The position numbers were made by a program, and so were the translations under genes. From assembly GCA_964553245.1 (NCBI GenBank), contig CAZKJM010000001.1, positions 447,555 through 511,554 on the forward strand: 64,000 nucleotides of DNA, given 5' to 3'. The DNA comes from an uncultured Gammaproteobacteria bacterium. GTDB taxonomy: Bacteria; Patescibacteriota; Microgenomatia; Levybacterales; UBA12049. A model generated the notes under the pieces. That model did not search any database. It was not told the DNA's origin and saw nothing but the letters and a program-made list of their open reading frames with translations. Positions 3,878 through 47,708 of this stretch are shown here, one piece after another; positions within the stretch are counted from its first letter, which is position 1, and every line of letters starts with the position of its first letter.

Positions 3878-4542
3878 TTTTCTTCCTTTCTTACAATAGC
3901 TGTTTTTATATTTTCGGTTATCTGGTTTGTTTCGATATGGGCATCGTTATAAAGCTCGTAATAAAGTTTAACCAATTCCTCTTTTTCTAGCGTTTTTGCT
4001 CCAAGGCTAAGCCTTGCGAGTTGAGCGTGAATCGTATCAAGCTTTGTATGCAAAGATGCTTTTGCCTCTTCGATAAAAGAGTTTTTCCCCGACTGTTTTT
4101 TTACCGTTGCATTTGCAGCTACGGTTGCAGCTCCTTTTTCAAGATACGAATAGGGTATGCAGATATAAAAATTTTTGTCCAGCACGATATTTACTTTAAC
4201 CAATTCCTGCACAAAATCTCTATACAATTTAATTTGACTTGCTAGCATTTCGTTTTGGGTATTTTTGGCTTCGTTGTCTAATAGTTTTAAGTATGAGCTA
4301 ATATCTAGCTTTTTACTCCTAATAATAATTTCTATTGGAAAAGAAAGTGAGTTTAGAAGCGACGCGTAGGAATATATTTTTGTATTTTGCTCTTCAAGCG
4401 ATAAAAGCGCAAAATTTGTCGCTCTAACTTCAATAATAGAACAGGCACTATTTCCGGACAGAAGAACAATATCGTCAATAATATCAATAATTTCCGTAAA
4501 TTTTTGAGTTGTTGAGTGTATTTTTTGGGCAGAATCTTTCAT
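3874..4542 (-). CDS. Hypothetical soluble protein within the T4SS-like operon
   Basis: 222-aa ORF with a 4-nt overlap to virB4 and 3 nt from the upstream gene. No TM segment or recognisable motif. Confidence 0.5.
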   Translation of the reverse strand: MKDSAQKIHSTTQKFTEIIDIIDDIVLLSGNSACSIIEVRATNFALLSLEEQNTKIYSYASLLNSLSFPIEIIIRSKKLDISSYLKLLDNEAKNTQNEMLASQIKLYRDFVQELVKVNIVLDKNFYICIPYSYLEKGAATVAANATVKKQSGKNSFIEEAKASLHTKLDTIHAQLARLSLGAKTLEKEELVKLYYELYNDAHIETNQITENIKTAIVRKEEK

Positions 4543-4545
4543 ATA

Positions 4546-5811
4546 TTAATTACCGAATAAACTTTTTCTTAATTCTTCTCGCTCATCAATAGAAATTACT
4601 TCAATCGGCAAGATTATTTCTCCGGTTGCCTGAAATTCAACAGAATCGAATCTATGTTTTTTTTCCGGATCCTCAAAGTCAATGGTGTATATGCCGTTGG
4701 ACAAAGGAGTTGCTGATGCAAATTGCCCAAGCGGGTTAGTCTTAAAAGCCCGGACTGGGTTTCCTTCCTCGTCTTTTACCTCAACTAAAATATTCGGTAG
4801 AGGATTGTTTCTTGAGTCTTTTATAATACCTGTTAAAACATTTGGAAAATCAGTAGAAATAGGAAGTCCTACGCTTTTGCCCATTTCTTTTGGAATGCTT
4901 CTAACATGTTTAGTTTGTTTTATTTGCGGCTCAGGGATCGCCATGCTTGGGGTGTAAACTTTTTTATTTTGTACCTCAAGTTTTTTTTGAAGTTCCAATA
5001 ATTGATTTTCTAATTGTTGTTTTTGAAGCATAGTTTCATTTAAGATCTTTTCAAGTTCAGTTACTTTTTGGTGCGCTGCCTCATACTCTTTGGATCCTGT
5101 TTTCTCCGAAACTTCTTTTTGCTTTGCTTCCTCAAGTTGTTTTTGAAGAATTACAGCTTCTTTCTGAAGCTCTTCTTCTTTTTCTTCCGGTTCTTCTTTA
5201 GCTTCTTTGGTTGGCATATCAACCGGTTTTGGTGGTTCCACTACAGTTTTTAAATTGTTTTTGCCAAAAATTGCAGCAAATGGATTAGGAAGAGAAAAAG
5301 AGCTGTCATCTTGCAGGGTCTTGGCTTGAATTATTGGGTTAGAAATATTATTCAAGGTTTGCAAAAATGATATTTCTTTTTCGTCCAATTTATTTTTAGG
5401 AGTTTTTGGTAGCGAGGATAAAAATGACTTGAGCTTTTCTTCCGAAATTGCGGGTTGAACAGGAGAGTGAGCCATTATTGCGCCTTGTTTTAATGTCCCA
5501 AACTCGGGAAAATAAAGATCTGCTCCGTTTTTTTGATAAACAAATTGAGTTGGGTTAAAAAGTGCCTTTGAAAAATTGCCAATCATTACATCCAATGGTC
5601 TTCCCTCTATTGGCAAAAAAGCAAAGCTTGCTCCGATTCCGGCTACTACAAGCGCAATCGGAAGTTTTATCAAAAGCAAAAACGGCATAGCAGTAATAAT
5701 CCAACCTAAAATTACGCCTGTTGCAAGATATGCAAACTGTTTGACAGTCATATTGCCGATTAGTTTAAACTGAAAGCCTGTTATATCTTGAGGAATAGGG
5801 TGATTTTCCAT
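4546..5811 (-). CDS. T4SS-associated membrane protein. The N-terminal two-TM module (VirB3/PrgI-like?) is followed by a long coiled coil (EEKEEELQKEAVILQKQLEEAKQ…) and a C-terminal beta-sandwich-like domain.
   Basis: The N-terminus (TGFQFKLIGNMTVKQFAYLATGVILGWIITAMPF…) carries two predicted TM helices and is placed immediately upstream of virB4, as VirB3/PrgI is. Coiled-coil heptads are visible. The C-terminal region (PNILVEVKDEEGNPVRAFKTNPLGQFASATPLSNGIYTIDFE) resembles a carboxypeptidase-regulatory-like/Ig-like fold. Confidence 0.45.
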   Translation of the reverse strand: MENHPIPQDITGFQFKLIGNMTVKQFAYLATGVILGWIITAMPFLLLIKLPIALVVAGIGASFAFLPIEGRPLDVMIGNFSKALFNPTQFVYQKNGADLYFPEFGTLKQGAIMAHSPVQPAISEEKLKSFLSSLPKTPKNKLDEKEISFLQTLNNISNPIIQAKTLQDDSSFSLPNPFAAIFGKNNLKTVVEPPKPVDMPTKEAKEEPEEKEEELQKEAVILQKQLEEAKQKEVSEKTGSKEYEAAHQKVTELEKILNETMLQKQQLENQLLELQKKLEVQNKKVYTPSMAIPEPQIKQTKHVRSIPKEMGKSVGLPISTDFPNVLTGIIKDSRNNPLPNILVEVKDEEGNPVRAFKTNPLGQFASATPLSNGIYTIDFEDPEKKHRFDSVEFQATGEIILPIEVISIDEREELRKSLFGN

Positions 5812-5958
5812 ATAAAACTACTGTATAACGTGAAAAATTTGCTTTCAAGATTATCAAACTAGGTCAAACAACAATTAAAATGTATCTAAAAACCGTGAAA
5901 AATGCAATATAGAAAAACAATAATAATTTATGTAATTATTTCTTTTAGAAAAAGAGGA

Positions 5959-6342
5959 TTAGGAACAGTTATTAAACCCAAAATAATTAATACATTCGGC
6001 TCCTGTTATATAGGCGATAATTTTTATTATTAAAAAAGATAAAAAGATTACCAATAAGCCGATAATTGCATAGGTTAAAGTTTTTTTTGCTTGATCAATT
6101 TTCTTTTGATCTCCGCCTGATGTTATAAAGCTGATTCCGGATAAAATAACAAAAATTAAGGCAACACTTCCCGATAAAATCAAGAGCCAATTAACAACTT
6201 GACCAAATACAACCGGAAGGCATTGAAGAGTTGCAACTCCGTCTACCATACAGTTTGACCAAGAAGCTCCGCCTGAAGTTCCTCCTGTGGAGCCGGTTCC
6301 AGGATCAGCTTTGGCGATAAGGTTAATAAAAGTTGCCAACAT
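5959..6342 (-). CDS. VirB2/TrbC-like T4SS pilin, paralogue 1
   Basis: 127 aa with two hydrophobic helices separated by the short polar loop TSGGDQKKIDQAKKTLTYA, shared with the neighbouring paralogues. It has Cys pairs near the N-terminal (SNCMVDGVATLQC) and C-terminal (AECINYFGFNNC) ends. Confidence 0.6.
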   Translation of the reverse strand: MLATFINLIAKADPGTGSTGGTSGGASWSNCMVDGVATLQCLPVVFGQVVNWLLILSGSVALIFVILSGISFITSGGDQKKIDQAKKTLTYAIIGLLVIFLSFLIIKIIAYITGAECINYFGFNNCS

Positions 6343-6386
6343 AAAGATAGATTAACAAAAGAAATATTAATTTACAATACGCTTTG

Positions 6387-6779
6387 TTATAAAGTCGGGA
6401 GTTCTAGATTATTGATGCTTGGGAGACCAAATACACTTAGTATAATGCTTATTATTAAGTAAGAAAGAAATACTACGATTAATCCAATAATAGCAGCTAC
6501 TATATGACTTCTTGCTGCTTCTACTTTTCCTTTATCTCCACCGGATGTGACCCATCTGATACCACCATATATTAAGTATCCAAGAGCAGCAACAATTGCT
6601 AATATAAATGCGGTATTAATTATTACACCGATTATTTTTCCAAAATCTCCAGCTTTAAGCTCGCATAGAGTTTGAGATATTCCTCCACCTTCGCAAAGAT
6701 TAATGGTCTCTGCAAACGCAAATGGAGCCAGTGTTAAATAGGTTGCTGCTGAGGTAATAATTCCTACAGTTTTTTTCAT
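6387..6779 (-). CDS. VirB2/TrbC-like T4SS pilin, paralogue 2
   Basis: Signal-peptide-like N-terminus (MKKTVGIITSAATYLTLAPFAFA), then TM1, loop (TSGGDKGKVEAARSH) and TM2. This is the classic VirB2 topology. Confidence 0.65.
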   Translation of the reverse strand: MKKTVGIITSAATYLTLAPFAFAETINLCEGGGISQTLCELKAGDFGKIIGVIINTAFILAIVAALGYLIYGGIRWVTSGGDKGKVEAARSHIVAAIIGLIVVFLSYLIISIILSVFGLPSINNLELPTL

Positions 6780-6824
6780 TTATAATTTAATGCTAGTATT
6801 AAATTCCTGTCTTGTCAAGTACTT

Positions 6825-7139
6825 TTATATAAAATTATTAATTCCGAATAGTCCTCCGATAATATTTACAATTAAATACGCTAATAAAACAACTACCAAC
6901 CCGGCTACGGCATAAAATAATTTTTTTCTTGCTGCTTGCAATTTTTGTTTATCGCCCTCTGATGTCATCCACTGAAATCCTCCGTAGATTAAAAAGCCTA
7001 AAGCCAGAATAATAGCAACTATATATAATATATTTACTCCGACACCGATAATTTTTTCAAGAGTACCTGCTCCACCGGTTGGAATTCCTTGTGGTCCTGT
7101 AATCTCTTGTCCTGCAATATTTAAAACGATCTCCTTCAT
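6825..7139 (-). CDS. VirB2/TrbC-like T4SS pilin, paralogue 3
   Basis: 104 aa with TM1, loop MTSEGDKQKLQAARKKL and TM2, the same motif as paralogues 1 and 2. Only 3 nt separate it from the upstream gene. Confidence 0.6.
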   Translation of the reverse strand: MKEIVLNIAGQEITGPQGIPTGGAGTLEKIIGVGVNILYIVAIILALGFLIYGGFQWMTSEGDKQKLQAARKKLFYAVAGLVVVLLAYLIVNIIGGLFGINNFI

Positions 7140-7142
7140 AAA

Positions 7143-8336
7143 TCAGCTGAATCCGGGTATTTTTAAAATATCAACACCAATTACCTGAAGTATAACAAGG
7201 GAAAAGATTATAAACAATAATCCAACAATAGCTGCTGTTAAAGACTCTTTTGCTCCCTGCATTTTTTCCGGGTTTCCTCTTGCCAAAATAATTTTGTAAC
7301 CAGATAGAATGATTAAGATTAATGCAATTCCCCCGGAAAGACTTAAAAGGACACCGAATAAAGATTTAATAAAAGACGCTGCATCTGTTCCTAATGTTAT
7401 TCCAAGCCCAGTATCTATGGATAAACATTTTCCGCCATCTCCCAACTCTGAACAATGCGCAGTAATCGGAGGAAGATTATCAAAAAGGTTATCAATAAAT
7501 ACTTTCCCCTCATTGCTTTCTTCTCCTAAAACATTTAGAACGATCCAGTCTTTATTATTGCCTTCAAAAACATATATAGTTTGATCTCCAATTGCCTTAT
7601 CTGGAACCTTAAGTTCTATTTTACATTCAGGCTCATCTAGACATTGCCTTAAATTGTCCGATCCGCCCTGGAACCTGTATTTATAAGTCCCGCTTTTGTT
7701 GTTATGGATTGTCAATGTAACTGTCTCTCCAGGATTTGCTTTTGAAGGATCGATTGACAACGTGAATGGAGCATTATGTTCTTGATCTAAATAAAAAGTT
7801 CTATAGGTCTCGACATGTTCTTTTTGTTTATTGGTTGCATAAAGTCTATAGACAGCGCCTCCTGTTCCAAAAATATCAAATTTTTCCACTTTAAATTGCG
7901 CTTTAATTTTCCAATTTTTCCCCCCATCATTACTAAAACAAGATTGTTGAACAAATGATGATCCTTGATGAGATAGGTCGCATGTTGAAGACTTTCTGTT
8001 AATTTTATACTCCAATTTCCATTCATGTTTTGAAGATTTAAAAACATTACTGGTTGATTCATTCTCTACCAAAATTAAGAGTTGATATTCTTCATCTGGT
8101 TTTGGCGCTGGTAATTGTCCCCCTCTTGAGTAATAAAGTGTTGTTTGAGTTTGAGCAGTGCTTACTTCTCCCCAAATAGCATCAGAAATATCTAGTTCAA
8201 CGTTTATAATGTCACCGTTTTTTACATTAGTTTTATCAATCGTTAGCGCAACTCCGCTTGCATGAACAGGGTTTTTAAAAAACAGGAAAAAAATTAAGAT
8301 TAAGATTGAAAATAGAATTCTTTTCAGGACAGGCAT
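7143..8336 (-). CDS. Pilin-fusion protein. After a signal peptide, a ~300-aa extracellular domain is fused to a C-terminal VirB2-like pilin module.
   Basis: The N-terminal signal is MPVLKRILFSILILIFFLFFKNPVHA. The Cys-containing extracellular region is beta-rich. The C-terminal 70 aa (…ILSGYKIILARGNPEKMQGAKESLTAAIVGLLFIIFSLVILQ…) repeat the TM-loop-TM motif of the three small pilins. Confidence 0.55.
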   Translation of the reverse strand: MPVLKRILFSILILIFFLFFKNPVHASGVALTIDKTNVKNGDIINVELDISDAIWGEVSTAQTQTTLYYSRGGQLPAPKPDEEYQLLILVENESTSNVFKSSKHEWKLEYKINRKSSTCDLSHQGSSFVQQSCFSNDGGKNWKIKAQFKVEKFDIFGTGGAVYRLYATNKQKEHVETYRTFYLDQEHNAPFTLSIDPSKANPGETVTLTIHNNKSGTYKYRFQGGSDNLRQCLDEPECKIELKVPDKAIGDQTIYVFEGNNKDWIVLNVLGEESNEGKVFIDNLFDNLPPITAHCSELGDGGKCLSIDTGLGITLGTDAASFIKSLFGVLLSLSGGIALILIILSGYKIILARGNPEKMQGAKESLTAAIVGLLFIIFSLVILQVIGVDILKIPGFS

Positions 8337-37853: not shown

Positions 37854-38303
37854 ATGAAATGTCCATATTGTGGGAGCAGAGACACGGAAGTAGTTGAAAC
37901 AAGAGTCAGTGAAGATTTAGACACAATTAGAAGAAGAAGAGCTTGTACAAACTGCGAAAAAAGATTTACGACTTACGAAAGAGTAGAAAATATAAATTTA
38001 GTAGTCATTAAAAAAGATGGGAAAAGAGAACAGTTTAATAGAGATAAATTAAAAAATGGAATAATAAGATCCTGCGAAAAAACAAAAATATCGGTTGCGG
38101 ACATAGAACAAATTGTAACAGAAATAGAAAGAGAGCTAAGAGGAGCAGATTCAGTAGAAGTGGAAAGTAAAAAAATTGGACAGATGGTGGCAGTAAGGTT
38201 AAAAAAATTGGACAAAGTTGCGTACATAAGGTTTTCGAGCGTATTTAGAAGATTCGTGGACGTAGAAGACTTTGAAAAGGAAGTCAAAAAATTAATTAAA
38301 TAA
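37854..38303 (+). CDS. nrdR: Transcriptional repressor NrdR
   Basis: MKCPYCGSRDTEVVETR zinc ribbon followed by the ATP-cone. Confidence 0.85.
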   Translation: MKCPYCGSRDTEVVETRVSEDLDTIRRRRACTNCEKRFTTYERVENINLVVIKKDGKREQFNRDKLKNGIIRSCEKTKISVADIEQIVTEIERELRGADSVEVESKKIGQMVAVRLKKLDKVAYIRFSSVFRRFVDVEDFEKEVKKLIK

Positions 38304-38306
38304 TTT

Positions 38307-40793
38307 ATGAAACTAGACGGAATTAGAGAAAAAGTATTTTTAGATAGATATGCCTTAAAAGACAAAAAAGGTAATCCTATCGAAAAGACCCCCGATGAAA
38401 TGTGGAGAAGGGTTGCGAAGGGTGTTTCACAAGCAGAAAAAAAATCAGAGCGTACAAAATGGGAGAAAAAATTCTATGAAGCAATGCAGGATTTTAAATT
38501 TGTTCCGGGTGGAAGAATTCTGGCAGGTGCAGGTACAGGCTATCAAGTAACATTCTATAATTGCTTTGTCCTCCCTAGCCCTAAAGATTCAAGAGACGGG
38601 ATTTTAGAAAATCTAAAACATATGACCGAGATTATGGCAAGAGGAGGAGGAGCGGGAATAAATCTTTCTTCTTTAAGACCAAGAGGAGCAAGGGTAAAAA
38701 AGGTAAATGGTTTTTCCTCCGGTCCGATTAATTGGGCAGAGCTTTATTCCATAACCACAAAAGACATAATTCAACAAGGAGGTTCAAGAAGAGGAGCATT
38801 AATGTTAATGCTTTGGGATTGGCATCCGGATATTGAAGAATTTATTACGGTAAAACAGGATCTTACTAAAATTAACGGCGCTAATTTATCCGTTTGTGTT
38901 TCCGATAAATTTATGGAGGCAGTTAAAAAAGATGAAGATTGGGATTTAGTTTTTCCGGATATTGACGACAAAGATTACGATGAAAAATGGGACGGAAACT
39001 TGGAAACTTGGAAATCTCTAAAGAAAAAAGTAAAAGTTTTTAAAACAATAAAAGCAAGACATCTTTGGGATTTAATTTGTGAAGCTGCATGGAGATCTGC
39101 AGAGCCGGGAATCGTTTTTATGGAAAGATATAATAAATGGTATAACAACTGGTATTGGAATAAAGTTAATTGTACAAATCCTTGCGGCGAAGAAGGATTG
39201 CCCGCTTGGGGAGTTTGTAATTTAAGCTCTTTAAATCTCTCAGCCTTTGTAAAAGGATATTCTGTAGATAAAGCAGGAGAGATGGACTATAAATCATTAG
39301 CGGAATACGCAAAAATTGGCGTTAGACTGCAGGACGATGTTATAGATATGGATTCCTACGCTTTTCCTCAAATCAGACAAGTTCAGGTAAATGGAGAAAG
39401 AAGAATTGGGCTTGGCACAATGGGGCTTGGAGACGCTTTAATAAAAATGCATCTTCGCTATGGAACAGAAGAATCCTTAAAAGTCATCGAGAAAATTTTT
39501 AAAACAATAAGGGACGCTGCTTATGAGGTGTCATCTGAGCTTGCAAAAGAAAAAGGTGTATTTCCTAAGTTTAACAGTCAAAAATATACAAAGGGCTATT
39601 TTATTAAAAAGTTACCAAAAGAATTAAGAACAAAAATTAAGAAACAGGGTATTAGGAATTCTCTTTTGCTTCAAGCGGCGCCAACTGGATCAACCAGTCT
39701 TTTATCGGGAGTATCATCGGGAATAGAGCCGATTTATGAATTTGAATTTATTAGAAAAGACAGGCTTGGAGAGCACAAAATTTATCACCATCTGTATGAA
39801 GAATGGAAAAATGCCCATCCGGATTTATCGGAAAGCGAAAAGCCTGAATACTTTGTTTCTGCAAACGATCTTACTCCCGCAGATCATGTAAAAGTTCAAG
39901 GAACAATCCAAAAATATGTAGATGCTTCCATTTCCAAAACAGTTAACGCTCCAAGGACACATACAGTTAATGATGTAAAAAATCTTTATATGATGGCTTA
40001 TGAAGAAGGTTGTAAGGGAATTGCTTATATGAGGGAAGGATCAAGAGAAGGAGTTTTGGTTAGAAAAGAGGATAAAAAAGAAGAATTAGCTAATTTACAA
40101 GCCGGCGGAGAAAGAACTGCGCCAAAAAATACAATTACACCAAGACCGTATATGGTAGAAGGAGTGACTTATAAAACAGAAACCCCTGTTGGGCAAACGT
40201 ATATAACCATAAATCATGATGAGTGTAAGGAGCCGTTTGAGATATTTATAACCGTTGGAAAATCCGGTTCAGACGTTGCTGCAATGGCGGATGGATTAGG
40301 AAGAATGATTTCTTTATTTCTAAGACTTAACGGACATCTTTCTTCAAGAGAAAGAGTAAAGCAGGTTATAGCGCAATTAATCGGAATCGGTGGTGCAAAA
40401 AGCGTTGGCTTTGGAGATAAAAGAGTAAGATCATTGCCGGATGCGGTTGCCAAAGTTTTAGCAAGGCACTTTTCTTTTAGAGTTAACGGTGTAGTTGAAG
40501 ATAAGCCTCGTACTTTGCATGCAAACGGAGCTTCTAATCAAAATGGTCATAAAAATGGATTAATGAATGGGCACACTTTACCAGTAAATAATATTGCTTC
40601 TTCGGAAAAACAGGATGATCAGCCAATTGTAGTTATGAAACAACTTACTTTGGAAACGCAAGAGGGTAATCTTTCATCCTCGGAAGGTGTCTCCACAGGG
40701 CTTTTTGATATTTGTCCGGATTGTGGAAGTGGAAGCTTAGCTTACGAAGAAGGCTGTAGAAAATGCTACAGTTGTGGATATTCAGAGTGTTAA
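38307..40793 (+). CDS. nrdJ: Class II (adenosylcobalamin-dependent) ribonucleotide reductase NrdJ
   Basis: Active-site CTNPCGEEGL and a C-terminal zinc ribbon (CPDCGSGSLAYEEGCRKCYSCGYSEC). A single long chain lies immediately after nrdR. Confidence 0.85.
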   Translation: MKLDGIREKVFLDRYALKDKKGNPIEKTPDEMWRRVAKGVSQAEKKSERTKWEKKFYEAMQDFKFVPGGRILAGAGTGYQVTFYNCFVLPSPKDSRDGILENLKHMTEIMARGGGAGINLSSLRPRGARVKKVNGFSSGPINWAELYSITTKDIIQQGGSRRGALMLMLWDWHPDIEEFITVKQDLTKINGANLSVCVSDKFMEAVKKDEDWDLVFPDIDDKDYDEKWDGNLETWKSLKKKVKVFKTIKARHLWDLICEAAWRSAEPGIVFMERYNKWYNNWYWNKVNCTNPCGEEGLPAWGVCNLSSLNLSAFVKGYSVDKAGEMDYKSLAEYAKIGVRLQDDVIDMDSYAFPQIRQVQVNGERRIGLGTMGLGDALIKMHLRYGTEESLKVIEKIFKTIRDAAYEVSSELAKEKGVFPKFNSQKYTKGYFIKKLPKELRTKIKKQGIRNSLLLQAAPTGSTSLLSGVSSGIEPIYEFEFIRKDRLGEHKIYHHLYEEWKNAHPDLSESEKPEYFVSANDLTPADHVKVQGTIQKYVDASISKTVNAPRTHTVNDVKNLYMMAYEEGCKGIAYMREGSREGVLVRKEDKKEELANLQAGGERTAPKNTITPRPYMVEGVTYKTETPVGQTYITINHDECKEPFEIFITVGKSGSDVAAMADGLGRMISLFLRLNGHLSSRERVKQVIAQLIGIGGAKSVGFGDKRVRSLPDAVAKVLARHFSFRVNGVVEDKPRTLHANGASNQNGHKNGLMNGHTLPVNNIASSEKQDDQPIVVMKQLTLETQEGNLSSSEGVSTGLFDICPDCGSGSLAYEEGCRKCYSCGYSEC

Positions 40794-40975
40794 CTAGTGC
40801 ATAGGTAATTGCCGTTAAATTCGGCAGCAGTGCCGCTACTGTAAATTCCGCGAAGCCTCTTGGGCAAAGTGGAATAAAGCCAGAAAACTATGTACGTTCG
40901 CCAAAAGGCGGATGTTTCCCGAGCAGGAATTTTTTTGTAAAAAACCTCCTCGGGATTACCTAGGGAGGATTTTTT
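40794..40975 (+). promoter_or_regulatory. Candidate cobalamin riboswitch / structured leader upstream of the PduO-type adenosyltransferase
   Basis: The 182-nt region is unusually GC-rich for this genome. It contains GCCGCTACTGTAA (compare the conserved gCcCccgCaACtGtaa element), AGCCAG (B12-box-like) and a GGAGG RBS within a possible sequestering hairpin. Confidence 0.35.
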
Positions 40976-41533
40976 ATGGTTAAACAGATTCACCGCGAGT
41001 TTAAAATATATACAAAAAGGGGGGACAAGGGTTTTACCTATCTTTTTAATGGCAAAAAAATTAAAAAAGACAATAATAGAGTGCAAGCTTATGGGAATAT
41101 TGATGAATTAAATTCAATAGTAGGAATTTTAATTGCCTTTTTAAGAGATAAGCAACTAAAAAAAGAGTTGATCTGTGTTCAAAAAGATTTGTTTTTAGTA
41201 GGTGGGTATTTAGCAAAATCAATTGGTAGAGAAATAGAGATACTTAATAAAAGAACAAAAGAGATAGAACTGCTAATCGATAAATTATCGGTAAAACTTC
41301 CCAAAATTACTTCTTTTATATTACCAGGGGGTACAATAGAGGCTTCGTTTATGCATTTTGCAAGAACTGTTTGTAGAAGATCGGAAAGAAGTGTCGTTTT
41401 ATTGTCCAAAAAAGAAACCGTAGAAAAAACAGTGATTGTTTATTTGAATAGGCTTTCAGACGCCCTTTTTATAATGGCTAGATTTATAAATTTTAAAGAA
41501 GGGAAAAAAGAGGAGGTCTGGAAAACAAAATGA
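40976..41533 (+). CDS. PduO-type ATP:cob(I)alamin adenosyltransferase
   Basis: N-terminal IYTKRGDKGFTYLFNGKKIKKDNNRVQAYGNIDELNSIVG closely matches the PduO/MMAB signature (YTKTGDKG…EAYG..DELNS). Confidence 0.85.
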   Translation: MVKQIHREFKIYTKRGDKGFTYLFNGKKIKKDNNRVQAYGNIDELNSIVGILIAFLRDKQLKKELICVQKDLFLVGGYLAKSIGREIEILNKRTKEIELLIDKLSVKLPKITSFILPGGTIEASFMHFARTVCRRSERSVVLLSKKETVEKTVIVYLNRLSDALFIMARFINFKEGKKEEVWKTK

Positions 41534-42600
41534 AAGAAAAAATTGCCGGATCAATTGCGTTTAGATTAGAATATCAGCCACAAGTATTGGAAAAGGAAAT
41601 AAGAGAAGACGTAATTTCTTATCTTTGGGAATACCGTTTTAGTGGTCAAAAATATGATTATTCCCTTTCTTTTACAGACGGAAAAATAACAGATATCCAT
41701 AGGGGGGAATCGATGGTGGTTAAGGGAGAAAGAGCAGTTGAGGACAGGAAAATCCGAGGATTATCCACAACAAGAGAAGAAGCGGAATTGGTTGGCATTA
41801 AAAGATTAGAAGACCAACTTAGTTTATTAAAAAACGAGGGAACAATCATTTGGGCAAGTCCTCCTGGATCAACGGAAGATGGATATGGTGATTATGGATT
41901 TTTATATGTCGGTAAAGTTAGATCGGATGATTCTAGTAATAAAGAAATAACAATGACTGCTATAAGAGTGGAGAGTCCGACTGTAAAAGGTTTTAATGAA
42001 GTTTTTTCCGATTTATTAAAGGATAAAGTAGAGGCAAAAAATCCAGAAGATTTTATTTCTGCGCCGCTTGTTTTAGAAAGACAAATGGATATTGGTCATA
42101 TTGAAGAAATTTTGCATAAGGTTTTTTTATACGAAGAAAAGACAAAAGAAAAAGAATTATTTAAAAGAGTTTTAAAAAGACTGAATCCATTAATTACTGA
42201 TTTTACAAATTTTTATGGAAAGGCAAGTCCTGAGGAAAGACAAAAAGCGTTATATGCATTAGAGAATTATGCACTTATTTTAAAGGCTGAAGAAAATGTT
42301 TTGGATAAAGAAAATGTAATTTATGTAAGTCAAAAACAAGAGCAAAGCCTGGTAGCAATTATGCCTGTCTTGGGTTACGAACCGCCGAAGGTTCTTGGCA
42401 GTTGTGGAAGTACCAAAACAGAGAGCAATAATATCTTTGGACCAAAAACTATTTTAAATTCACTTTTAGAAGATGATAATTACGGATCAAGAGCGTTTAA
42501 GTGTCCAAGGTGCGGACAAGTTAATATTAGACCAAAAAATGAGCTTGTAAGTCATTGTCAGTATTGTGGAAGCAATGAGGTAAGTTGTTCTAATTCATAG
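41530..42600 (+). CDS. Hypothetical protein with a C-terminal zinc-ribbon (CPRCGQ…CQYCGS)
   Basis: 356-aa ORF with a 4-nt overlap to the upstream gene. No known domain apart from the terminal Cys4 pair. Confidence 0.45.
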   Translation: MKEKIAGSIAFRLEYQPQVLEKEIREDVISYLWEYRFSGQKYDYSLSFTDGKITDIHRGESMVVKGERAVEDRKIRGLSTTREEAELVGIKRLEDQLSLLKNEGTIIWASPPGSTEDGYGDYGFLYVGKVRSDDSSNKEITMTAIRVESPTVKGFNEVFSDLLKDKVEAKNPEDFISAPLVLERQMDIGHIEEILHKVFLYEEKTKEKELFKRVLKRLNPLITDFTNFYGKASPEERQKALYALENYALILKAEENVLDKENVIYVSQKQEQSLVAIMPVLGYEPPKVLGSCGSTKTESNNIFGPKTILNSLLEDDNYGSRAFKCPRCGQVNIRPKNELVSHCQYCGSNEVSCSNS

Positions 42601-42639: not shown

Positions 42640-43053
42640 ATGGATGATGTTCAACGAAATTCCCAAAATTCGCAAGCTAGCAGCCATATGCAGCCGTTTA
42701 GTTCAATGCATAAAGAGCAAGCGCCGATTTCGGAAATCGGAAATGTCAGCGATTTTTTATCTCACGCGGAAAAGGGGCCTGAATTAGATGATGACCTAAA
42801 GAGAGCTGGAGTGGAAAAAGCCGGCGAGAGATTTGAATTATCAAAGGAGCATAATGATTTTGGAATAGAAGACGCAAAAGAATCAATTAAGCCGCATTTG
42901 GAACCAAAAGGAACAGTAAAAATATTAACTAACGATGAAGCAACGCAAATAGATAAAAAAGATAAAAATACAGAAGATTCAATAAAATGGCTAGCTAGAC
43001 TACGTTTAAAAATTCAAAAAGTGTGGCAAAATATAAGAGGAAATAAAATTTAA
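42640..43053 (+). CDS. Hypothetical acidic protein (137 aa)
   Basis: ORF ending 5 nt before the T4CP-like gene. Low complexity and charged. Confidence 0.35.
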   Translation: MDDVQRNSQNSQASSHMQPFSSMHKEQAPISEIGNVSDFLSHAEKGPELDDDLKRAGVEKAGERFELSKEHNDFGIEDAKESIKPHLEPKGTVKILTNDEATQIDKKDKNTEDSIKWLARLRLKIQKVWQNIRGNKI

Positions 43054-43057
43054 ATTT

Positions 43058-45427
43058 ATGATAGAAGCTCTCACCATGGAAAATTTAGTTCCATCATTAA
43101 TATTATTTGGAGCTTATGCTTTAGCAATAACGGTTTTAGTATTTTTCATAGCGTTTGTAGCCTACTCGTTGTTTATTTTATATAAAAACAGAAATAGGGA
43201 AAAAGATGCGCTTAATTCAACGCTTCTTCAGGTTTCACTAACCAGAGATAATGAGGTTAAAATTGATGCTGCAGAACAGCTTTTTGCATCTTTAGCATCG
43301 GTCAGAAAAGGAGGAAAATTAAGTTTTTTAAAACCTCAACCCCATTTTTCTTTTGAGATTGTCGGAATACCCGGGGACATCAGTTTTTATATTTATACCC
43401 CGAATAAACTAAAGGATTTAATCGAGAAGCAAATAAATGGTGCTTATCCAGAAGCGGAAATAAAAGTTGTTGATGAAAAAACGCAAAAAGAGGGATATGT
43501 AATCGGTAATGAATATAATATTTTCTCCAAAGAAGGAAAAGTTGCCTTTACTTCCCTTAAGCTTAAAACTTCAAATTATTATCCAATAAAAGTTTTTAAA
43601 GATTTACCTGTTGATCCTTTGTCTTCTATTACATCAGTCTTGGCAAAAATGACCGAAGGAGAAGGAGCTGCAATTCAAGTTTTATTTAGTCCGGTAGATG
43701 GAAAATGGAAAAAAATGGGAAGGGGATATATTTCCCGAACTAAAAAAGGAGAGGCAAATCCGGAAACGGCTAAATATTCGGCAGACTCTAAAGAGCTGGA
43801 AGCAGTAGAAAACAAAATATCAAAAACGGGTTTTGATACGGTTATAAGAATTGTAGTTTCCTCAAGCACAAAAGAAGCTGCAAGTGCTCATCTTAGCAAT
43901 ATTATAACCAGCTTTGGCCAGTTTAACGGAATAAACTCTTTTACTAAAAATAAACATAGGCTTAAAGGTTTGTTTATGAATGATTTTATTTACCGTTTTA
44001 TGCCAATGTATGGTCAGACTTCGGTGTTGTCGAATGAAGAACTGGCAACGGTTTTCCATTTTCCGAACAAATCGGTAACAACGCCTCATATTCATTGGCT
44101 AAATTCCAAAAGGGCACCAGCTCCTGCACAAATACCTGATAACGGTCTTTTTTTGGGAAGAAGTACTTATAGAGGCTTGTCAAAGCCGGTTTACATGCAA
44201 AGAGACGATAGAAGACGCCATATGTACGTTATTGGAAAAACCGGTGTTGGAAAATCCGAGTTTTTAAAAGATATGATTTTGCAGGATATTAGAAATGGAG
44301 AAGGGGTTTGTTTTATAGATCCTCACGATACAATTGATAAATTACTTCCTCTGATTCCGCCGGAGCGTGCAGAAGACGTAATCCTTTTTGAGCCTTCGGA
44401 TACAGATAGACCAATGGGGCTAAATATGTTAGAAGCACAAACAGAAGACCAGAAACATTATGTTGTTTCGTCGATAATAGGCCTTATGTATAAACTTTAT
44501 GATCCAAATAAAACCGGAATTATCGGACCAAGGTTTGAGCACGCAATAAGAAATGCAATGCTAACAGTAATGTCAGAACCGGGAAATACTTTTGTAGAAG
44601 TAGTAAGGGCTTTAACAGATTCCAGTTTTGTAGAAGAATTATTGCCAAAAGTACAGGATCCAATGGTAAGAAGATATTGGACAGATCAAATTGCTCAAAC
44701 ATCGGATTTTCATAAATCAGAAGTTTTAGATTATATTGTTTCTAAGTTCAGTAGATTCGTAAGCAATAAAATGATGAGAAACATTATTGGTCAGTCTGAA
44801 TCTGCTTTTAATTTTAGAAAAGTAATGGATGAGGGTAAAATTCTTTTAATTTCTTTATCAAAAGGAAGAATTGGGGAAGAGAATTCAAGCTTTTTAGGAC
44901 TCGTTTTAGTGCCAAAGATTTTAGTTGCCGCAATGAGCAGGCAGGATATTCCGGAAGAAAAAAGAAGGGACTTTTATTTATACGTTGATGAGTTTCAAAA
45001 TTTTGCAACGCCTGATTTTGCCCAAATACTTTCAGAGGCAAGAAAATACAGGCTTAATTTAACGGTTGCTAACCAGTTTATCGGTCAAATGGACGAGGAG
45101 GTAAAAAACGCAATTTTTGGAAACGTTGGTTCTCTTGTTTCATTTAGAGTTGGTGTAACAGATGCTAATTATCTTCAACATGAATTCCAACCTGTATTTA
45201 CAGAAGCAGATCTTATTAATGTAGACAGGTTTAATGCTTATATAAAAACGGTTGTCGGTGGAGAACCTGTTTTGCCTTTTTCAATTGATCTAACTCGTGA
45301 TATGACAAAAGAAAAACAGACCGAAAATCCAAGAGTAGCAGAATTAATTCGTGAGCTTTCAAGATTAAAATATGGTCACGATGTTACCACCGTAGAGCAG
45401 CAAATTGCCCAAAGGGCAAGATTGTAA
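43058..45427 (+). CDS. Type IV coupling protein-like ATPase (VirD4/TraG/TraD family)
   Basis: N-terminal TM anchor, Walker A (YVIGKTGVGKSEF), Walker B (FYLYVDEFQNF) and the family-typical segment ARKYRLNLTVANQFIGQMDEE… Length is 789 aa. Confidence 0.6.
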   Translation: MIEALTMENLVPSLILFGAYALAITVLVFFIAFVAYSLFILYKNRNREKDALNSTLLQVSLTRDNEVKIDAAEQLFASLASVRKGGKLSFLKPQPHFSFEIVGIPGDISFYIYTPNKLKDLIEKQINGAYPEAEIKVVDEKTQKEGYVIGNEYNIFSKEGKVAFTSLKLKTSNYYPIKVFKDLPVDPLSSITSVLAKMTEGEGAAIQVLFSPVDGKWKKMGRGYISRTKKGEANPETAKYSADSKELEAVENKISKTGFDTVIRIVVSSSTKEAASAHLSNIITSFGQFNGINSFTKNKHRLKGLFMNDFIYRFMPMYGQTSVLSNEELATVFHFPNKSVTTPHIHWLNSKRAPAPAQIPDNGLFLGRSTYRGLSKPVYMQRDDRRRHMYVIGKTGVGKSEFLKDMILQDIRNGEGVCFIDPHDTIDKLLPLIPPERAEDVILFEPSDTDRPMGLNMLEAQTEDQKHYVVSSIIGLMYKLYDPNKTGIIGPRFEHAIRNAMLTVMSEPGNTFVEVVRALTDSSFVEELLPKVQDPMVRRYWTDQIAQTSDFHKSEVLDYIVSKFSRFVSNKMMRNIIGQSESAFNFRKVMDEGKILLISLSKGRIGEENSSFLGLVLVPKILVAAMSRQDIPEEKRRDFYLYVDEFQNFATPDFAQILSEARKYRLNLTVANQFIGQMDEEVKNAIFGNVGSLVSFRVGVTDANYLQHEFQPVFTEADLINVDRFNAYIKTVVGGEPVLPFSIDLTRDMTKEKQTENPRVAELIRELSRLKYGHDVTTVEQQIAQRARL

Positions 45428-45488
45428 TATACACCTGATAGGTTAAATTCTTTTGATACGTCTTGTTTTGTGCTAAAATTACTCGGAA

Positions 45489-45560
45489 GCGTCTGTAGCT
45501 CAGTGGCAGAGCGCTACTCTTATAAAGTAGATGTCCTTGGTTCGAACCCAAGCAGACGCA
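45489..45560 (+). tRNA. tRNA-Ile(TAT)
   Basis: GCGTCTG-TA-GCTC-AGTGGCA-GAGC-G-CTACT-CTTATAA-AGTAG-ATGTC-CTTGG-TTCGAAC-CCAAG-CAGACGC-A. Every stem pairs perfectly and the anticodon is UAU. Confidence 0.75.
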
Positions 45561-45563
45561 CAA

Positions 45564-46424
45564 TTAAAGCTCTGAGAGGATGTTTGTTTCTTTGCCGCGT
45601 TCTGGTACGTATTGAAGATATCTTTCGGTTGTAGAAAGCCTTTTATGACCCAAGAGCTTAGAAAGCATTACTAAAGAAACACCGTGTTTTAAATGATGTG
45701 CAACAAAAGTGTGTCTTAAATCATTTACTTTTGCCCCTTTAATTTCTGCTAATCTAAAGTATCTTTCGACCGCAGTCCTAATGTTTCTGATTAAAAATGG
45801 TTTTCCGGATTTAGTTATAAACAAAGTGTTTTCGGTTGCCTTTGGTCTTACTTCTAAATATTTTTCCAAAGCGTCTTTTGCTCTTTTATTAAGCGGCACT
45901 GTTCTTTCTTCGTGTTTTTCAAAAGGTGCAATATGAAGACTATCCTTTTGCATATCAGATAATGTTAAAGCTGCTAATTCTCCGATTCTAATTCCGGTTT
46001 GAAGCAATAATTCGATTACCGCATACATTCTTGCGTCATTTCTTGCAGCGTCTCTTAATGCTCTATACTCGGTTGGGGTAAGGATTCTGGGTGGAGCAAG
46101 TTGGTAGGTTGGGTGAGTAATTAAAAGCGATGGATCATCGGTTATATATTCACTGATTTTTAAAAACCTATAAAAAGTTCTGGTTGAGTTTATTTTTCTA
46201 GAGACCGATTTTGGCGTATAACCATCTTTATTCATTTTTGCCAAAAATGCTTCCAAATCTTCTTTTTTAACATCGTGAACTTGAGCTTTTTGAAGCTCTT
46301 CTAGAAAACCGACAAGCTGGTCAATGTCTTTACCGTAGGCAATAACAGTTGAGTTTGAATGCTTGTTATCCTTTAAATATTTTTTAAACTGTTCGTGGGC
46401 ATCGCGAAGTTTAACTGGTTTCAT
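45564..46424 (-). CDS. Tyrosine recombinase (XerC/XerD-like)
   Basis: Catalytic R…HxxR…Y region (LRHTFVAHHLKHGVSLVMLSKLLGHKRLSTTERYLQ) and an N-terminal SAM-like core-binding domain. It ends 3 nt from the tRNA-Ile 3' end. Confidence 0.8.
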   Translation of the reverse strand: MKPVKLRDAHEQFKKYLKDNKHSNSTVIAYGKDIDQLVGFLEELQKAQVHDVKKEDLEAFLAKMNKDGYTPKSVSRKINSTRTFYRFLKISEYITDDPSLLITHPTYQLAPPRILTPTEYRALRDAARNDARMYAVIELLLQTGIRIGELAALTLSDMQKDSLHIAPFEKHEERTVPLNKRAKDALEKYLEVRPKATENTLFITKSGKPFLIRNIRTAVERYFRLAEIKGAKVNDLRHTFVAHHLKHGVSLVMLSKLLGHKRLSTTERYLQYVPERGKETNILSEL

Positions 46425-46527
46425 AATAATATCCTATAATATCACTAAAAATACCTATAGTCAAGGGTATTTTTTACAAAATAATCTAAAAACAGTCAAA
46501 GTATGTTAATATAGTTAAAAGTAGTTC

Positions 46528-46869
46528 ATGAAGAAGATACTATTTGTAGTTACGGTTATAATTCTGCTCTTAATAATTAATAATCTTTCACGCTCAATTT
46601 ATGATTTGTGGAAAAAGCAGGATCTTCTTACTAAAGCTCAGAAAGAGCTTGTAAAAGAACAACAATTAAATCAAAAGCTTAAAGCAGAATTGTCCTTTGC
46701 GAAAACCCGTCAATTTATAGAGGAAGAGGCTAGAAATAAGCTTTTTTTACTAAAACCGGGTGAGCAACAAGTGTTAATTTCCGAAGATCAGCTTAATCTA
46801 GGAAAACAAAAGTCAACAAAACCGGAAATTCCAAATTGGCAAAAATGGTTAAACTTATTTGTAAAATAG
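46528..46869 (+). CDS. Septum formation initiator (FtsB/DivIC-like)
   Basis: N-terminal TM followed by a coiled coil (LWKKQDLLTKAQKELVKEQQLNQKLKAEL). Confidence 0.5.
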   Translation: MKKILFVVTVIILLLIINNLSRSIYDLWKKQDLLTKAQKELVKEQQLNQKLKAELSFAKTRQFIEEEARNKLFLLKPGEQQVLISEDQLNLGKQKSTKPEIPNWQKWLNLFVK

Positions 46870-46873
46870 GCAT

Positions 46874-47659
46874 ATGTTGAAACAAAGAGAAATAATTAAG
46901 AGGGCAGCATTGGAGGCTGGAAAAATAATTTTGGCAACTAAGCCAACGGAAAATGTAAAGGAAAAAGCAGGAAGGGCGAATCTAGTTACAGAAGCGGATC
47001 TTAAAAGCGAAAATGCAATAGTTGAGCTTATAAATCAACACTTTCCCGAAGACTTAATATTGTCAGAAGAAACAAAAAGTAACATCCCAAATCCATTATT
47101 AGCAGAAAAGCTCTGGGTTGTGGACCCAATTGACGGAACAAATAATTTTAGATACGAAAGAAATTATTCTTGTGTTTCAATTGCCTATGCGGAAAAAGGC
47201 GTAGTGCAATTAGGGGTAGTTTATGATCCGTTTAGAGATGAAATGTTTTATGCAGAAAAAATGCAGGGAGCATTTTTAAACGGAAAAAAGATTTTTGTCT
47301 CCAAGTTAAAAGATTTAGCAAGGTCAGTGGTAGCCAGTGATAATTCTTACGAGTCCGAAGGAACCAAGTATAACCTTGAGTTATTTTTAAAATTAAATCC
47401 AGCGCCTTGGTTTTTGATAAAAGGAAGCGCCACTTTAACAATGTGCGAAGTTGCTGCCGGTAGAATTGATCTCTATTTTCACAATTATTTAAAACCATGG
47501 GATAATGCGGCAGCGTTTTTAATAGTTGAGGAAGCAGGCGGAGTAGTAAGAGGTATTAGCGGTAATAATGCAAATTTTATGTCGGAAAGCGTAATTTGTG
47601 GAAACGAAGAACTTGTAAAAAACTTTGTTGCGGGGCTAGGAGTTGCGCCTAGCCTGTGA
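46874..47659 (+). CDS. Inositol monophosphatase family protein (SuhB-like)
   Basis: Signature WVVDPIDGTNNF and the metal-binding EE motif. Confidence 0.75.
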   Translation: MLKQREIIKRAALEAGKIILATKPTENVKEKAGRANLVTEADLKSENAIVELINQHFPEDLILSEETKSNIPNPLLAEKLWVVDPIDGTNNFRYERNYSCVSIAYAEKGVVQLGVVYDPFRDEMFYAEKMQGAFLNGKKIFVSKLKDLARSVVASDNSYESEGTKYNLELFLKLNPAPWFLIKGSATLTMCEVAAGRIDLYFHNYLKPWDNAAAFLIVEEAGGVVRGISGNNANFMSESVICGNEELVKNFVAGLGVAPSL

Positions 47660-47708
47660 GATTATGAGCCTCACGTGCACTGTACACTACCCCGCACGTA
47701 AAGCACAT

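Follow-up and report, generated by a model that had tools for sequence, protein, structure and literature searches.

The window analysed here, a stretch of 64,000 nucleotides, contains a gene for a coupling-protein-like (T4CP-like) ATPase that lies directly ahead of a tRNA gene; beyond the tRNA follows a tyrosine recombinase gene. The features of this part of the window are as follows.

37854..41533, + strand: nrdR, a class II (B12-dependent) ribonucleotide reductase (RNR, nrdJ) and a PduO-type cobalamin adenosyltransferase (cobAT), the housekeeping genes of the upstream flank
41530..42600, + strand: ORF356, a domain-less ORF with a C-terminal zinc ribbon
42640..43053, + strand: ORF137, a small acidic protein, the upstream partner of the ATPase gene (iterative HMM search)
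43058..45427, + strand: T4CP-like (VirD4/VirB4-clade) P-loop ATPase, 789 amino acids
45489..45561, + strand: tRNA-Ile(UAU) (ARAGORN; Rfam tRNA, 72.6 bits)
45564..46424, - strand: Xer-type tyrosine recombinase (xer), 286 amino acids, with Phage_int_SAM_1 and Phage_integrase domains (Pfam)
46447..46474, no strand assigned: a 9-nt perfect inverted repeat, AAAAATACC-N10-GGTATTTTT, between xer and ftsB
46528..46869, + strand: FtsB/DivIC septum-formation initiator (ftsB), the divergent neighbour of xer (Pfam DivIC, 1.6e-11; synteny)

The ATPase has a VirD4-type layout: an N-terminal membrane anchor made of one hydrophobic helix (amino acids 7-43), a P-loop nucleotide-binding domain with Walker A (GKTGVGKS, amino acids 393-400, nt 44234-44257) and Walker B (YLYVDEFQ, amino acids 640-647, nt 44975-44998) motifs, and an all-helical insert in the motor domain (approximately amino acids 463-577). 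A DUF8128 domain (approximately amino acids 45-350) separates the membrane helix from the motor. The Pfam families TraG-D_C (24.2, cutoff 22), TrwB_AAD_bind (22.0, cutoff 20.5) and T4SS-DNA_transf (20.1, cutoff 20.1) are each only marginally reached, and the scores of the NCBIfam TraD and CD1115 models fall far under their cutoffs. A profile search of the PDB recovered TrwB and DotL and not TrwK, and the NCBIfam model VirB4_plasma gave only 19 bits. An hhalign comparison with the VirB4 protein of the same window covers amino acids 242-711 (probability 83%, E = 9e-6), and the top Foldseek matches are full-length TrwK with a TM-score of only about 0.3. The AF2 model of the ATPase is of medium quality (pLDDT 68), and the N-terminal domain modelled alone (pLDDT 45) is unusable. 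A Pfam search covering nearly every ORF of at least 110 amino acids and a Walker A scan agree with a first reading made from the sequence only, which had called this the only T4CP-like gene in the window. The other physical elements described in that reading also stand at the positions it gave.

Gene order was compared in 80 species-level loci, picked by their similarity to the ATPase. Sixty-seven of them, from Levy-, Beckwith-, Gottesman- and Curtissbacteria genomes with enough downstream sequence, are informative. The ATPase orthologues share 63-86% identity; in each of the loci compared the protein is more conserved than RNR, cobAT, MurD, MurI, DivIC, PGK, GAPDH, TGT and TrpRS, and it is about equal to FtsH and NrdR, an apparent conservation that the choice of loci by ATPase similarity somewhat inflates. 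The order ORF137, ATPase gene, tRNA-Ile(UAU), (xer, ftsB) recurs in the 80 species-level genomes, which represent several Microgenomates lineages, and the same order is found in seven of nine independent metagenome contigs. The tRNA lies 3' of the orthologous ATPase gene in 65 of the 67 informative loci, at a distance of at most 300 bp in 40 of them, and this linkage is ancestral. The xer gene (- strand) and divIC (+ strand) follow further downstream in 46/67 loci, while RNR/nrdJ-cobAT is found upstream in most. ORF137 and the ATPase gene, with tRNA-Ile(UAU) directly 3', form an ancestral arrangement that Levy-, Beckwith-, Gottesman- and Curtissbacteria have retained; the xer-ftsB/divIC pair and the B12 module of nrdJ, cobAT and ORF356 are further parts of this old order, which are slowly being lost.

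The two ORFs ahead of the ATPase gene had been described as domain-less, one of them with a zinc ribbon, and this description holds. Neither family is present in Pfam or NCBIfam, no Pfam family emerges even when divergent members are queried, and the ORF137 family is also missing from PADLOC. The stop codon of ORF137 lies 4 nt ahead of the ATPase start codon, and in 65 of the 80 related loci an iterative HMM search finds an ORF137 homologue that ends just 5' of the ATPase gene. Its C-terminus carries a conserved basic/amphipathic helix (consensus LPLT..E..GLH.K..dSiRWLAeWC.R.lK). ORF356, whose zinc ribbon (CPRCG...CQYCG) stands at the C-terminal end, has homologues in 30 loci. Where cobAT and RNR sit elsewhere and on the other strand (loci L032, L044 and L053), ORF356 moves with them, and in two loci (L008 and L010) an AdoCbl-II riboswitch lies directly 5' of its homologue; a sub-threshold cobalamin riboswitch is also seen in the window itself (40768-40906). 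ORF356 is a member of the nrdJ-cobAT (B12) module and not of the ATPase module.

The tRNA begins 61 nt past the ATPase stop codon, in keeping with the distance of at most 62 nt first reported, and both ARAGORN and Rfam identify it. It presumably decodes AUA, which is used 26 times per 1000 codons in the genes of the window. The spacing between tRNA and recombinase gene varies among relatives from 7 nt to 6.4 kb, and the abutment seen here is one close-packed state of this variable spacing. The longest spacer, in locus L046, holds mgsA, thyX and ORFs of unknown function; a search of it gave neither mobility genes nor repeats, and we dropped the idea that the variable DNA between tRNA and xer in relatives represents islands. 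In some distant relatives partial tRNA copies surround the tRNA-Ile gene, which is itself inverted. Recombination has occurred at tRNA-Ile in these other lineages.

Is the recombinase an integrase or a chromosomal Xer protein? Its best NCBIfam scores are with XerC (169.5 bits), XerD (167.5) and XerA (149.3), all under the respective equivalog cutoffs (335, 330 and 220), and its scores with integron, HP1 and Tn916-type integrases are far lower. The best PDB sequence match is E. coli XerD (1a0p, 3e-26), compared to 1e-8 for the HP1 integrase. The protein has the catalytic residues R-I (GIRIGEL) and R-II, the histidine of LGH and the tyrosine (ERYLQYV), while Asn (VNDLRH) takes the place of the first HxxR-box His in all orthologues examined (about 49). 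By sequence the protein is Xer-like and assignable to none of XerC, XerD and XerA. Its orthologues share 49-91% identity, and its gene is always divergent to ftsB/divIC (at least 44 loci) and occupies a conserved single chromosomal position beside this cell-division gene; the recombinase is linked to division genes and not to the ATPase. These scores and this pairing favour the alternative that had been raised alongside the mobile-element idea, namely a chromosomal XerC/D, with the exact XerC/XerD class not assignable. From homology and context, the protein is probably a housekeeping Xer that would serve chromosome-dimer resolution.

The inverted repeat between xer and ftsB overlaps the best promoter-like site for xer, and relatives have hairpins of unconserved sequence at the same place; it is probably an operator or a 5'-leader hairpin. 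We considered this 28-nt palindrome-like repeat as an 11-6-11 dif site and rejected it on account of the promoter overlap and the unconserved sequence. A dif-consensus scan of the window stayed at chance level (three matches, 2.1 expected). Since virB4 sits near dnaA in this phylum, the window probably lies close to the replication origin.

A tRNA beside a tyrosine recombinase had been read as the footprint of an integrative element. The ATPase gene, perhaps together with ORF356 and ORF137, would then have been carried in by an integrative or mobilisable element inserted at tRNA-Ile(UAU), with the adjacent recombinase as its integrase. Such a reading can appeal to the recombinase, whose stop codon begins 2 nt beyond the tRNA end (it had been placed 3 nt from the tRNA 3' end), to the T4CP-like gene on the other side of the tRNA, to the inverted and partial tRNA copies of distant relatives, and to the variable-length DNA (0.5-6.4 kb) between tRNA and xer in some genomes. 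Most of the evidence stands against it. The ATPase-tRNA adjacency, kept in 65/67 loci across several candidate phyla or classes, speaks against an empty site or variable presence. The ATPase and the recombinase lie on opposite sides of the tRNA, so an island that included the recombinase and was bounded by the tRNA 3' end would run away from the ATPase. The recombinase is Xer-like with ftsB as its partner gene, and the 6.4-kb insert of L046 carries mgsA and thyX rather than mobility genes.

The search for an att repeat and the composition of the region agree with this. The 22-nt tRNA 3' end has no second copy in the 64-kb window; the sequence-only reading had likewise found no direct repeat, and the result stands even with three mismatches allowed. 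The same 22-mer is single-copy in each of the nine metagenome stretches returned, including one from a relative's 863-kb contig, and when all 80 loci were searched for 13-mer copies of the tRNA, the only matches were to the D-arm of tRNA-Met and to local partial copies in distant relatives. In GC, GC3 and codon usage, ORF356, ORF137, the ATPase gene and xer are indistinguishable from the other 50 genes of the window: the ATPase gene has a GC z of 0.59, a GC3 z of -0.14 and a codon-usage distance of 0.066, among the lowest of 54 genes, and the other three deviate from the window mean by no more than 1.5 sd. The sliding GC profile stays level at 0.33-0.37, and the T4CP region shows no deviation from its flanks. 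These flanks consist of housekeeping genes on both sides (nrdR-nrdJ-cobAT upstream, ftsB-IMPase-murI-murD on the other side), and no replication or other mobility gene accompanies them; the window contains no relaxase, and Pfam and NCBIfam gave no relaxase or excisionase family among the neighbours of the ATPase gene. We regard an integrative element as highly improbable. The locus is very probably vertically inherited Microgenomates (Patescibacteria/CPR) chromosome.

The window also carries a chromosomal T4SS.

1949..8336, - strand: chromosomal Patescibacteria-type T4SS block
1949-3877, - strand: VirB4 (CD1110 family, 399.6 bits)
within this block, - strand: ORF222
4546-5811, - strand: PrgI/VirB3-like gene
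5959-8336, - strand: three T4SS_pilin genes

The ATPase gene lies 39 kb from virB4 and about 35 kb from the end of the last pilin gene (8336). Its separation from the VirB4 cluster, first given as 29 kb, is thus real and larger; the smaller figure applies only if a domain-less ORF at 12496-14196 is counted with the cluster. In the 80 relatives virB4 is never found within 10 kb of the ATPase gene. A survey of Patescibacteria reported 5,713 VirD4-like genes in 2,918 of 3,035 genomes (96%), only 148 of them near virB4, with relaxases almost absent (PMC12102498). A coupling-protein gene far from virB4 is already known as the published norm in these organisms, which further weakens the case for an inserted element.

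What might the ATPase do? It is presumably a membrane translocase that either serves the chromosomal T4SS in trans or has a T4SS-independent housekeeping role. The single helix at its N-terminus would hold the protein in the membrane, leaving the DUF8128 and motor domains on the cytoplasmic side; a hexameric ring of the TrwB/VirB4 type is probable, which would use ATP to move a substrate up to the membrane or across it. As its partner we think most likely, with about an even chance, the relaxase-less chromosomal T4SS 35-39 kb away (VirB4, PrgI-like protein and pilins), acting in trans and with ORF137 as an adaptor or regulator. In a Saccharibacterium the T4SS is essential, and its cluster is without a recognisable coupling protein or relaxase (PMC10633639).

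It is tempting to consider instead that the ATPase and ORF137 form a housekeeping translocase independent of the T4SS, either a septal DNA pump that substitutes for or aids FtsK together with Xer, or a cytoplasmic motor for DNA uptake. The conservation at the level of FtsH, GAPDH and NrdR, the linkage to xer-ftsB-murI-murD in 46/67 loci, the absence of virB4 within 10 kb in any locus and the very large size of the family (5,890 clusters at 50% identity, E <= 1e-30) are in its favour. Among Patescibacteria genomes, 96% have T4CP-like genes and 80% have VirB4, and exaptation has been raised as possible; in S. epibionticum the T4SS genes are essential, while the t4cp homologue was reported to be non-essential (PMC12102498). 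The difference in occurrence and the non-essential homologue speak for an independence from the T4SS that is at least partial. The ATPase itself does not combine an FtsK_SpoIIIE motor domain with a gamma (KOPS/XerD-activating) domain. No ftsK was found within the examined loci, and literature searches on FtsK in Microgenomates yielded nothing. A septal pump or uptake motor of this kind seems unlikely to us. We are only a little less doubtful that ORF137 and the ATPase are a near-universal Microgenomates housekeeping machine that works independently of the T4SS, for example a membrane DNA translocase, and not a relic of conjugation. Such a machine could replace or assist FtsK in segregation and Xer dimer resolution, or power the import of DNA or nucleotides, and it would explain the FtsH-level conservation, the occurrence beyond that of VirB4 and the lasting division and cell-wall neighbourhood.

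PADLOC matched the ATPase to mad8, which would make it a component of anti-phage defence (mad8-like, as in MADS, or DptH/HerA-like). The similarity to mad8, DptH and HerA is confined to the shared P-loop motor, and PADLOC detected no other defence-system component adjacent to the gene. Defence genes are patchy and fast-evolving, whereas this gene is single, syntenic, near-universal and very highly conserved. We dropped the defence reading, which is scarcely credible for a motor-domain match with its partners absent.

With the integrative-element idea gone, the locus is ordinary conserved chromosome, and its residual value is descriptive. The orphan T4CP-like gene of Microgenomates has a fixed ancestral context, with ORF137 on its 5' side and tRNA-Ile(UAU) on its 3' side; it encodes a distinctive DUF8128 N-domain, is conserved like core housekeeping genes and is unlinked to T4SS genes. 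With these properties, the role of the VirD4-like ATPases that nearly all Patescibacteria carry becomes a sharper question, and ORF137 and the ATPase offer a concrete two-gene target for interaction modelling or genetics.

Compared with known systems, the locus resembles tRNA-targeting ICEs, IMEs and genomic islands in that a tyrosine recombinase abuts the tRNA at its 3' end and an ATPase of conjugation type is close by; it differs from them in lacking an att repeat, a compositional shift, a relaxase and mobility cargo, and in being a block that is conserved rather than variable among relatives. The 286-aa recombinase shares with Xer recombinases the architecture of a SAM-like N-domain and a catalytic domain and the R/R/H/Y residues, and departs from XerC, XerD and XerA in its scores under the equivalog cutoffs and in the Asn that replaces the first His of HxxR. 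VirB4/TrwK proteins are set apart from the ATPase by TM-scores of about 0.3 and the absence of any significant VirB4 sequence family, and a bona fide VirB4 is already encoded separately in the window (1949-3877). In contrast to VirD4/TrwB/TraG coupling proteins, the ATPase has an additional DUF8128 domain of approximately 300 amino acids that is foreign to canonical VirD4, one long hydrophobic helix in place of the usual two transmembrane helices, extreme conservation (63-86% across candidate phyla) and a dedicated small partner ORF (ORF137), and it is unlinked to a relaxase or any mobile element. Its closest known kin are the orphan VirD4-like genes that Quinonero-Coronel et al. 2025 (PMC12102498) catalogued in Patescibacteria.

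The VirD4/TraG-like ATPase considered here is a coupling-protein-like gene (type IV coupling protein, T4CP) that lies apart from the T4SS block of the same window and next to a tRNA-Ile(UAU) gene and a tyrosine recombinase. The sequence-only reading located these three genes correctly, and its distances hold as well: 61 nt separate the ATPase stop from the tRNA, and 2 nt separate the tRNA end from the stop codon of the recombinase. Its figure of 29 kb between the ATPase and the VirB4 cluster needs qualifying, as virB4 itself is 39 kb away. The genes discussed are as follows.

Features of the window
37854-38303: nrdR
38307-40793: class II (B12-dependent) ribonucleotide reductase (RNR, nrdJ)
40976-41533: PduO-type cobalamin adenosyltransferase (cobAT)
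41530-42600, plus strand: ORF356, with a zinc ribbon
42640-43053, plus strand: ORF137
43058-45427, plus strand: ATPase, 789 aa
45489-45561: tRNA-Ile(UAU)
45564-46424, minus strand: tyrosine recombinase, 286 aa (xer)
46528-46869: ftsB/divIC
beyond ftsB/divIC, in order: inositol monophosphatase, tRNA-Met, murI, murD
1949-8336, minus strand: T4SS block (VirB4, ORF222, a PrgI-like gene and three T4SS_pilin genes)

With GC between 0.29 and 0.40 in 2-kb windows the sequence is AT-rich, and its gene content is that of a typical Patescibacteria (CPR) chromosome; homologues of the ATPase carry annotations such as Levybacteria and "Patescibacteria group". The VirB4 of the T4SS block belongs to the CD1110 family (399.6 bits). 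Downstream of virB4, an ORF of more than 650 aa on the minus strand extends past the window start. A STAND/AAA NTPase fused to a Trans_reg_C (OmpR-type) DNA-binding domain (8375-9793, minus strand) adjoins the pilin genes, and after it come two large ORFs (9797-14196; 900 and 566 aa) with no family match detected.

We compared the locus with 80 relative loci, each from another GTDB species genome and fetched with 10-kb flanks, in which the ATPase relative is 63-86% identical. Flanking genes were mapped by tblastn with the proteins of the window, and tRNAs were called by ARAGORN. Most of the 80 loci have the order RNR-cobAT-(ORF356)-(ORF137) upstream of the ATPase, and xer (minus) and divIC (plus) on the downstream side, often followed by murI-murD. 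Of the 67 loci with more than 1.5 kb of sequence beyond the ATPase, 65 have tRNA-Ile(UAU) there (at most 300 bp away in 40), and xer follows the tRNA in 46 loci, within 300 bp in 21. These loci include Levy-, Beckwith-, Gottesman- and Curtissbacteria, and none of the 80 has virB4 within 10 kb of the ATPase. A metagenome collection scanned for the exact 22-mer of the tRNA 3' end yielded nine stretches, among them one from an 863-kb contig, and the 22-mer occurs once in each; the order ATPase-tRNA-xer-divIC is found in seven of the nine. Between tRNA and xer the relatives have anything from 7 nt to 6.4 kb, and the tight abutment in the window is therefore one point in a variable range. The insert of locus L046, the largest, contains mgsA, thyX and unknown ORFs but no mobility genes.

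The abutment of tRNA and recombinase had been read as the mark of an integrative element carrying the ATPase. This reading is largely refuted by the ATPase-tRNA order kept in 65 of 67 loci and by the results from the window. With three mismatches allowed, there is no second copy of the tRNA-Ile 3' end within the 64 kb. In GC, GC3 and synonymous-codon usage none of ORF356, ORF137, the ATPase and xer departs from the spread of the window's other 50 genes, and the codon-usage distance of the ATPase is among the smallest. The neighbourhood of the ATPase contains no relaxase, excisionase or replication gene. Moreover, the recombinase lies 3' and the ATPase 5' of the tRNA, so an island of the classical kind, with the tRNA 3' end as its boundary, would hold the recombinase and not the ATPase.

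Some of the more distant relatives have an inverted tRNA-Ile(UAU), opposite in orientation to the ATPase gene, and next to it partial copies of the tRNA's 3' or 5' half (20-33 nt, 82-95% identity; L048, ~6090-6120; L064, ~12437-12469; L053, ~12503-12533; L072, ~2998-3025 and 3162-3182), which are possibly scars of past recombination at the tRNA. In the loci with the inverted tRNA, ORF137 is missing and no xer lies downstream; two tRNA-Ser genes precede the ATPase in some of them. Bacteria usually read AUA with a lysidine-modified CAU tRNA, and a decoder with a UAU anticodon is uncommon among them. Nearly all relatives keep the tRNA-Ile(UAU), and AUA makes up 26 per 1000 codons in the genes of the window. 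ARAGORN also calls a 70-nt tRNA-Met(CAT) (47627-47696, minus strand) overlapping the 3' end of the inositol-monophosphatase ORF, and an equal 70-nt call in many relatives; the Rfam tRNA model gave no report for the window's copy at E <= 0.1. Group I catalytic introns that score over the gathering threshold (56-82 bits) occur slightly downstream of divIC, near tRNA-Met genes, in relatives (L001, 14670-14852, minus; L008, 15022-15215, plus; L013, 14507-14699, minus; L016, 16485-16678, plus), with no match in the equivalent part of the window.

Is the recombinase then a chromosomal Xer protein, as the same reading had allowed? Its best scores and its constant ftsB/divIC partner support this. With a Phage_int_SAM_1 plus Phage_integrase architecture, it scores best against the NCBIfam models XerC (169.5 bits), XerD (167.5), generic "tyrosine recombinase" (152.3) and archaeal XerA (149.3); the integron integrase model reaches 58 bits, with no phage or ICE integrase model above it. 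Among solved structures E. coli XerD is the best match (3e-26) and XerA the next, with HP1 and other integrases at 1e-8 or worse. Every score is under the equivalog cutoffs, and the recombinase is therefore Xer-like, assignable neither to XerC nor to XerD. Its orthologues (49-91% identity) are always divergent from ftsB/divIC. The catalytic Arg (GIRIGEL), second Arg, LGH His and Tyr (ERYLQYV) are conserved, while the HxxR box has Asn for the first His (VNDLRH / VNDLRHTF) in the window protein and all of the approximately 49 orthologues examined.

A dif consensus scan of the window gave chance-level matches. A perfect 9-nt inverted repeat, AAAAATACC-N10-GGTATTTTT (46447-46474), also readable as a 28-nt 11-6-11 palindrome, lies 23 nt upstream of the xer start. 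We rejected it as dif because it overlaps the best sigma-70-like promoter match for xer and is replaced in several relatives by hairpins of unrelated sequence. Since T4SS genes in Patescibacteria tend to lie near dnaA (PMC12102498), the window is probably origin-proximal, and a dif site is then not expected inside it.

The two ORFs upstream of the ATPase are not equivalent. Iterative HMM searches covering every ORF of the loci find, in 65 of 80, an ORF137 homologue that ends directly ahead of the ATPase start; in the window its stop is 4 nt ahead of the ATPase ATG. The N-terminus is variable and acidic and the C-terminal motif conserved (LPLT..E..GLH.K..SIRWLAEWC.R.IK). ORF137 is a conserved partner gene of the ATPase. 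ORF356, with homologues in 30 loci, moves with cobAT and RNR where those sit elsewhere on the other strand (L032, L044, L053). AdoCbl-II riboswitches above the Rfam gathering score lie upstream of cobAT in one relative (L001, 7839-7918) and directly upstream of the ORF356 homologue in two (L008, 8146-8226; L010, 8238-8312). The co-movement and the riboswitch position thus place ORF356 in the B12/RNR module, and the riboswitch positions imply that this domain-less ORF is B12-regulated. In the window, between nrdJ and cobAT (40768-40906), the cobalamin riboswitch model RF00174 reaches 24.4 bits, short of its gathering score (31.5).

The ATPase family is large: the scored candidates of a 90%-identity database give 5,862 matches, and 5,890 of the 50%-identity clusters match at E <= 1e-30, some with fusion proteins of 1,400-2,000 aa as members. 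The N-terminal two-fifths is Pfam DUF8128 (PF26449) in precomputed annotation, and TraG-D_C, TrwB_AAD_bind and T4SS-DNA_transf match the C-terminal part marginally, just over their cutoffs. A 49-sequence family profile searched against the PDB sequence set finds TrwB (1.5e-7) and DotL (1.6e-6). An AF2 model of medium quality (pLDDT 68) predicts a long helix at the N-terminus (aa 7-43), an N-domain of alpha/beta type, and a RecA-like motor in which a helical insert separates Walker A (GKTGVGKS, 393-400) from Walker B (DEFQ, 644-647). Its best full-length Foldseek matches are R388 TrwK/VirB4, and hhalign aligns aa 242-711 with the window's own VirB4 (E = 9e-6). Together these results place the ATPase in the VirB4/VirD4 clade. 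In L028 the orthologue is accompanied, approximately 7.6 kb upstream, by a second, divergent paralogue of the ATPase (214-2349; 33% identity). Reports for the phylum give about two T4CP-like genes per genome, and the L028 pair fits this.

Conserved chromosomal context, domain architecture, intact ATPase motifs and a conserved partner ORF are established for this locus. The ATPase is most likely an NTPase anchored in the membrane, probably a hexamer, and its cytoplasmic ring would push substrate to a membrane channel. The most economical partner would be the genome's own chromosomal T4SS, which has no relaxase, with the ATPase working in trans, and ORF137 might serve as adaptor or regulator. 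A T4SS-independent housekeeping role, one version of which is cooperation with Xer and the divisome, has a small but appreciable probability in our view, because T4CP-like genes occur in more Patescibacteria genomes than VirB4 (96% versus 80%; PMC12102498), the t4cp homologue of S. epibionticum is reported dispensable (PMC12102498), and conservation of the ATPase is at housekeeping level. In each locus compared, the loci being ranked by similarity to the ATPase itself, it is more conserved than RNR, cobAT, MurD, MurI, DivIC, PGK, GAPDH, TGT and TrpRS, and on a par with FtsH and NrdR. A part in a defence system, suggested by a PADLOC mad8 match (55 bits) and similarity to DptH, was rejected: these matches concern only the shared motor, and the universality and synteny of the ATPase contradict it.

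The role in trans with the T4SS agrees with published work. Of 3,035 Patescibacteria genomes, 2,918 carry VirD4-like genes; these number 5,713, of which no more than 148 have virB4 nearby, and hardly any relaxases are present (PMC12102498). In Southlakia epibionticum the T4SS is essential and its cluster has no recognisable coupling protein (PMC10633639). An orphan T4CP far from virB4 is thus already described for the phylum, and this locus is one more member. What it adds is modest and descriptive: the ORF137 partner, the linkage to tRNA-Ile(UAU) and the placement of ORF356 in the B12 module. The recombinase has its best profile match in XerC and its best match among solved structures in XerD, but differs from them in its sub-cutoff scores and the Asn of the HxxR box. 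The ATPase is closest to T4CPs at the sequence level but differs from them by its lineage-specific DUF8128 N-domain, and TrwK/VirB4, although the best full-length structural matches of its model, reach a TM of only ~0.3.
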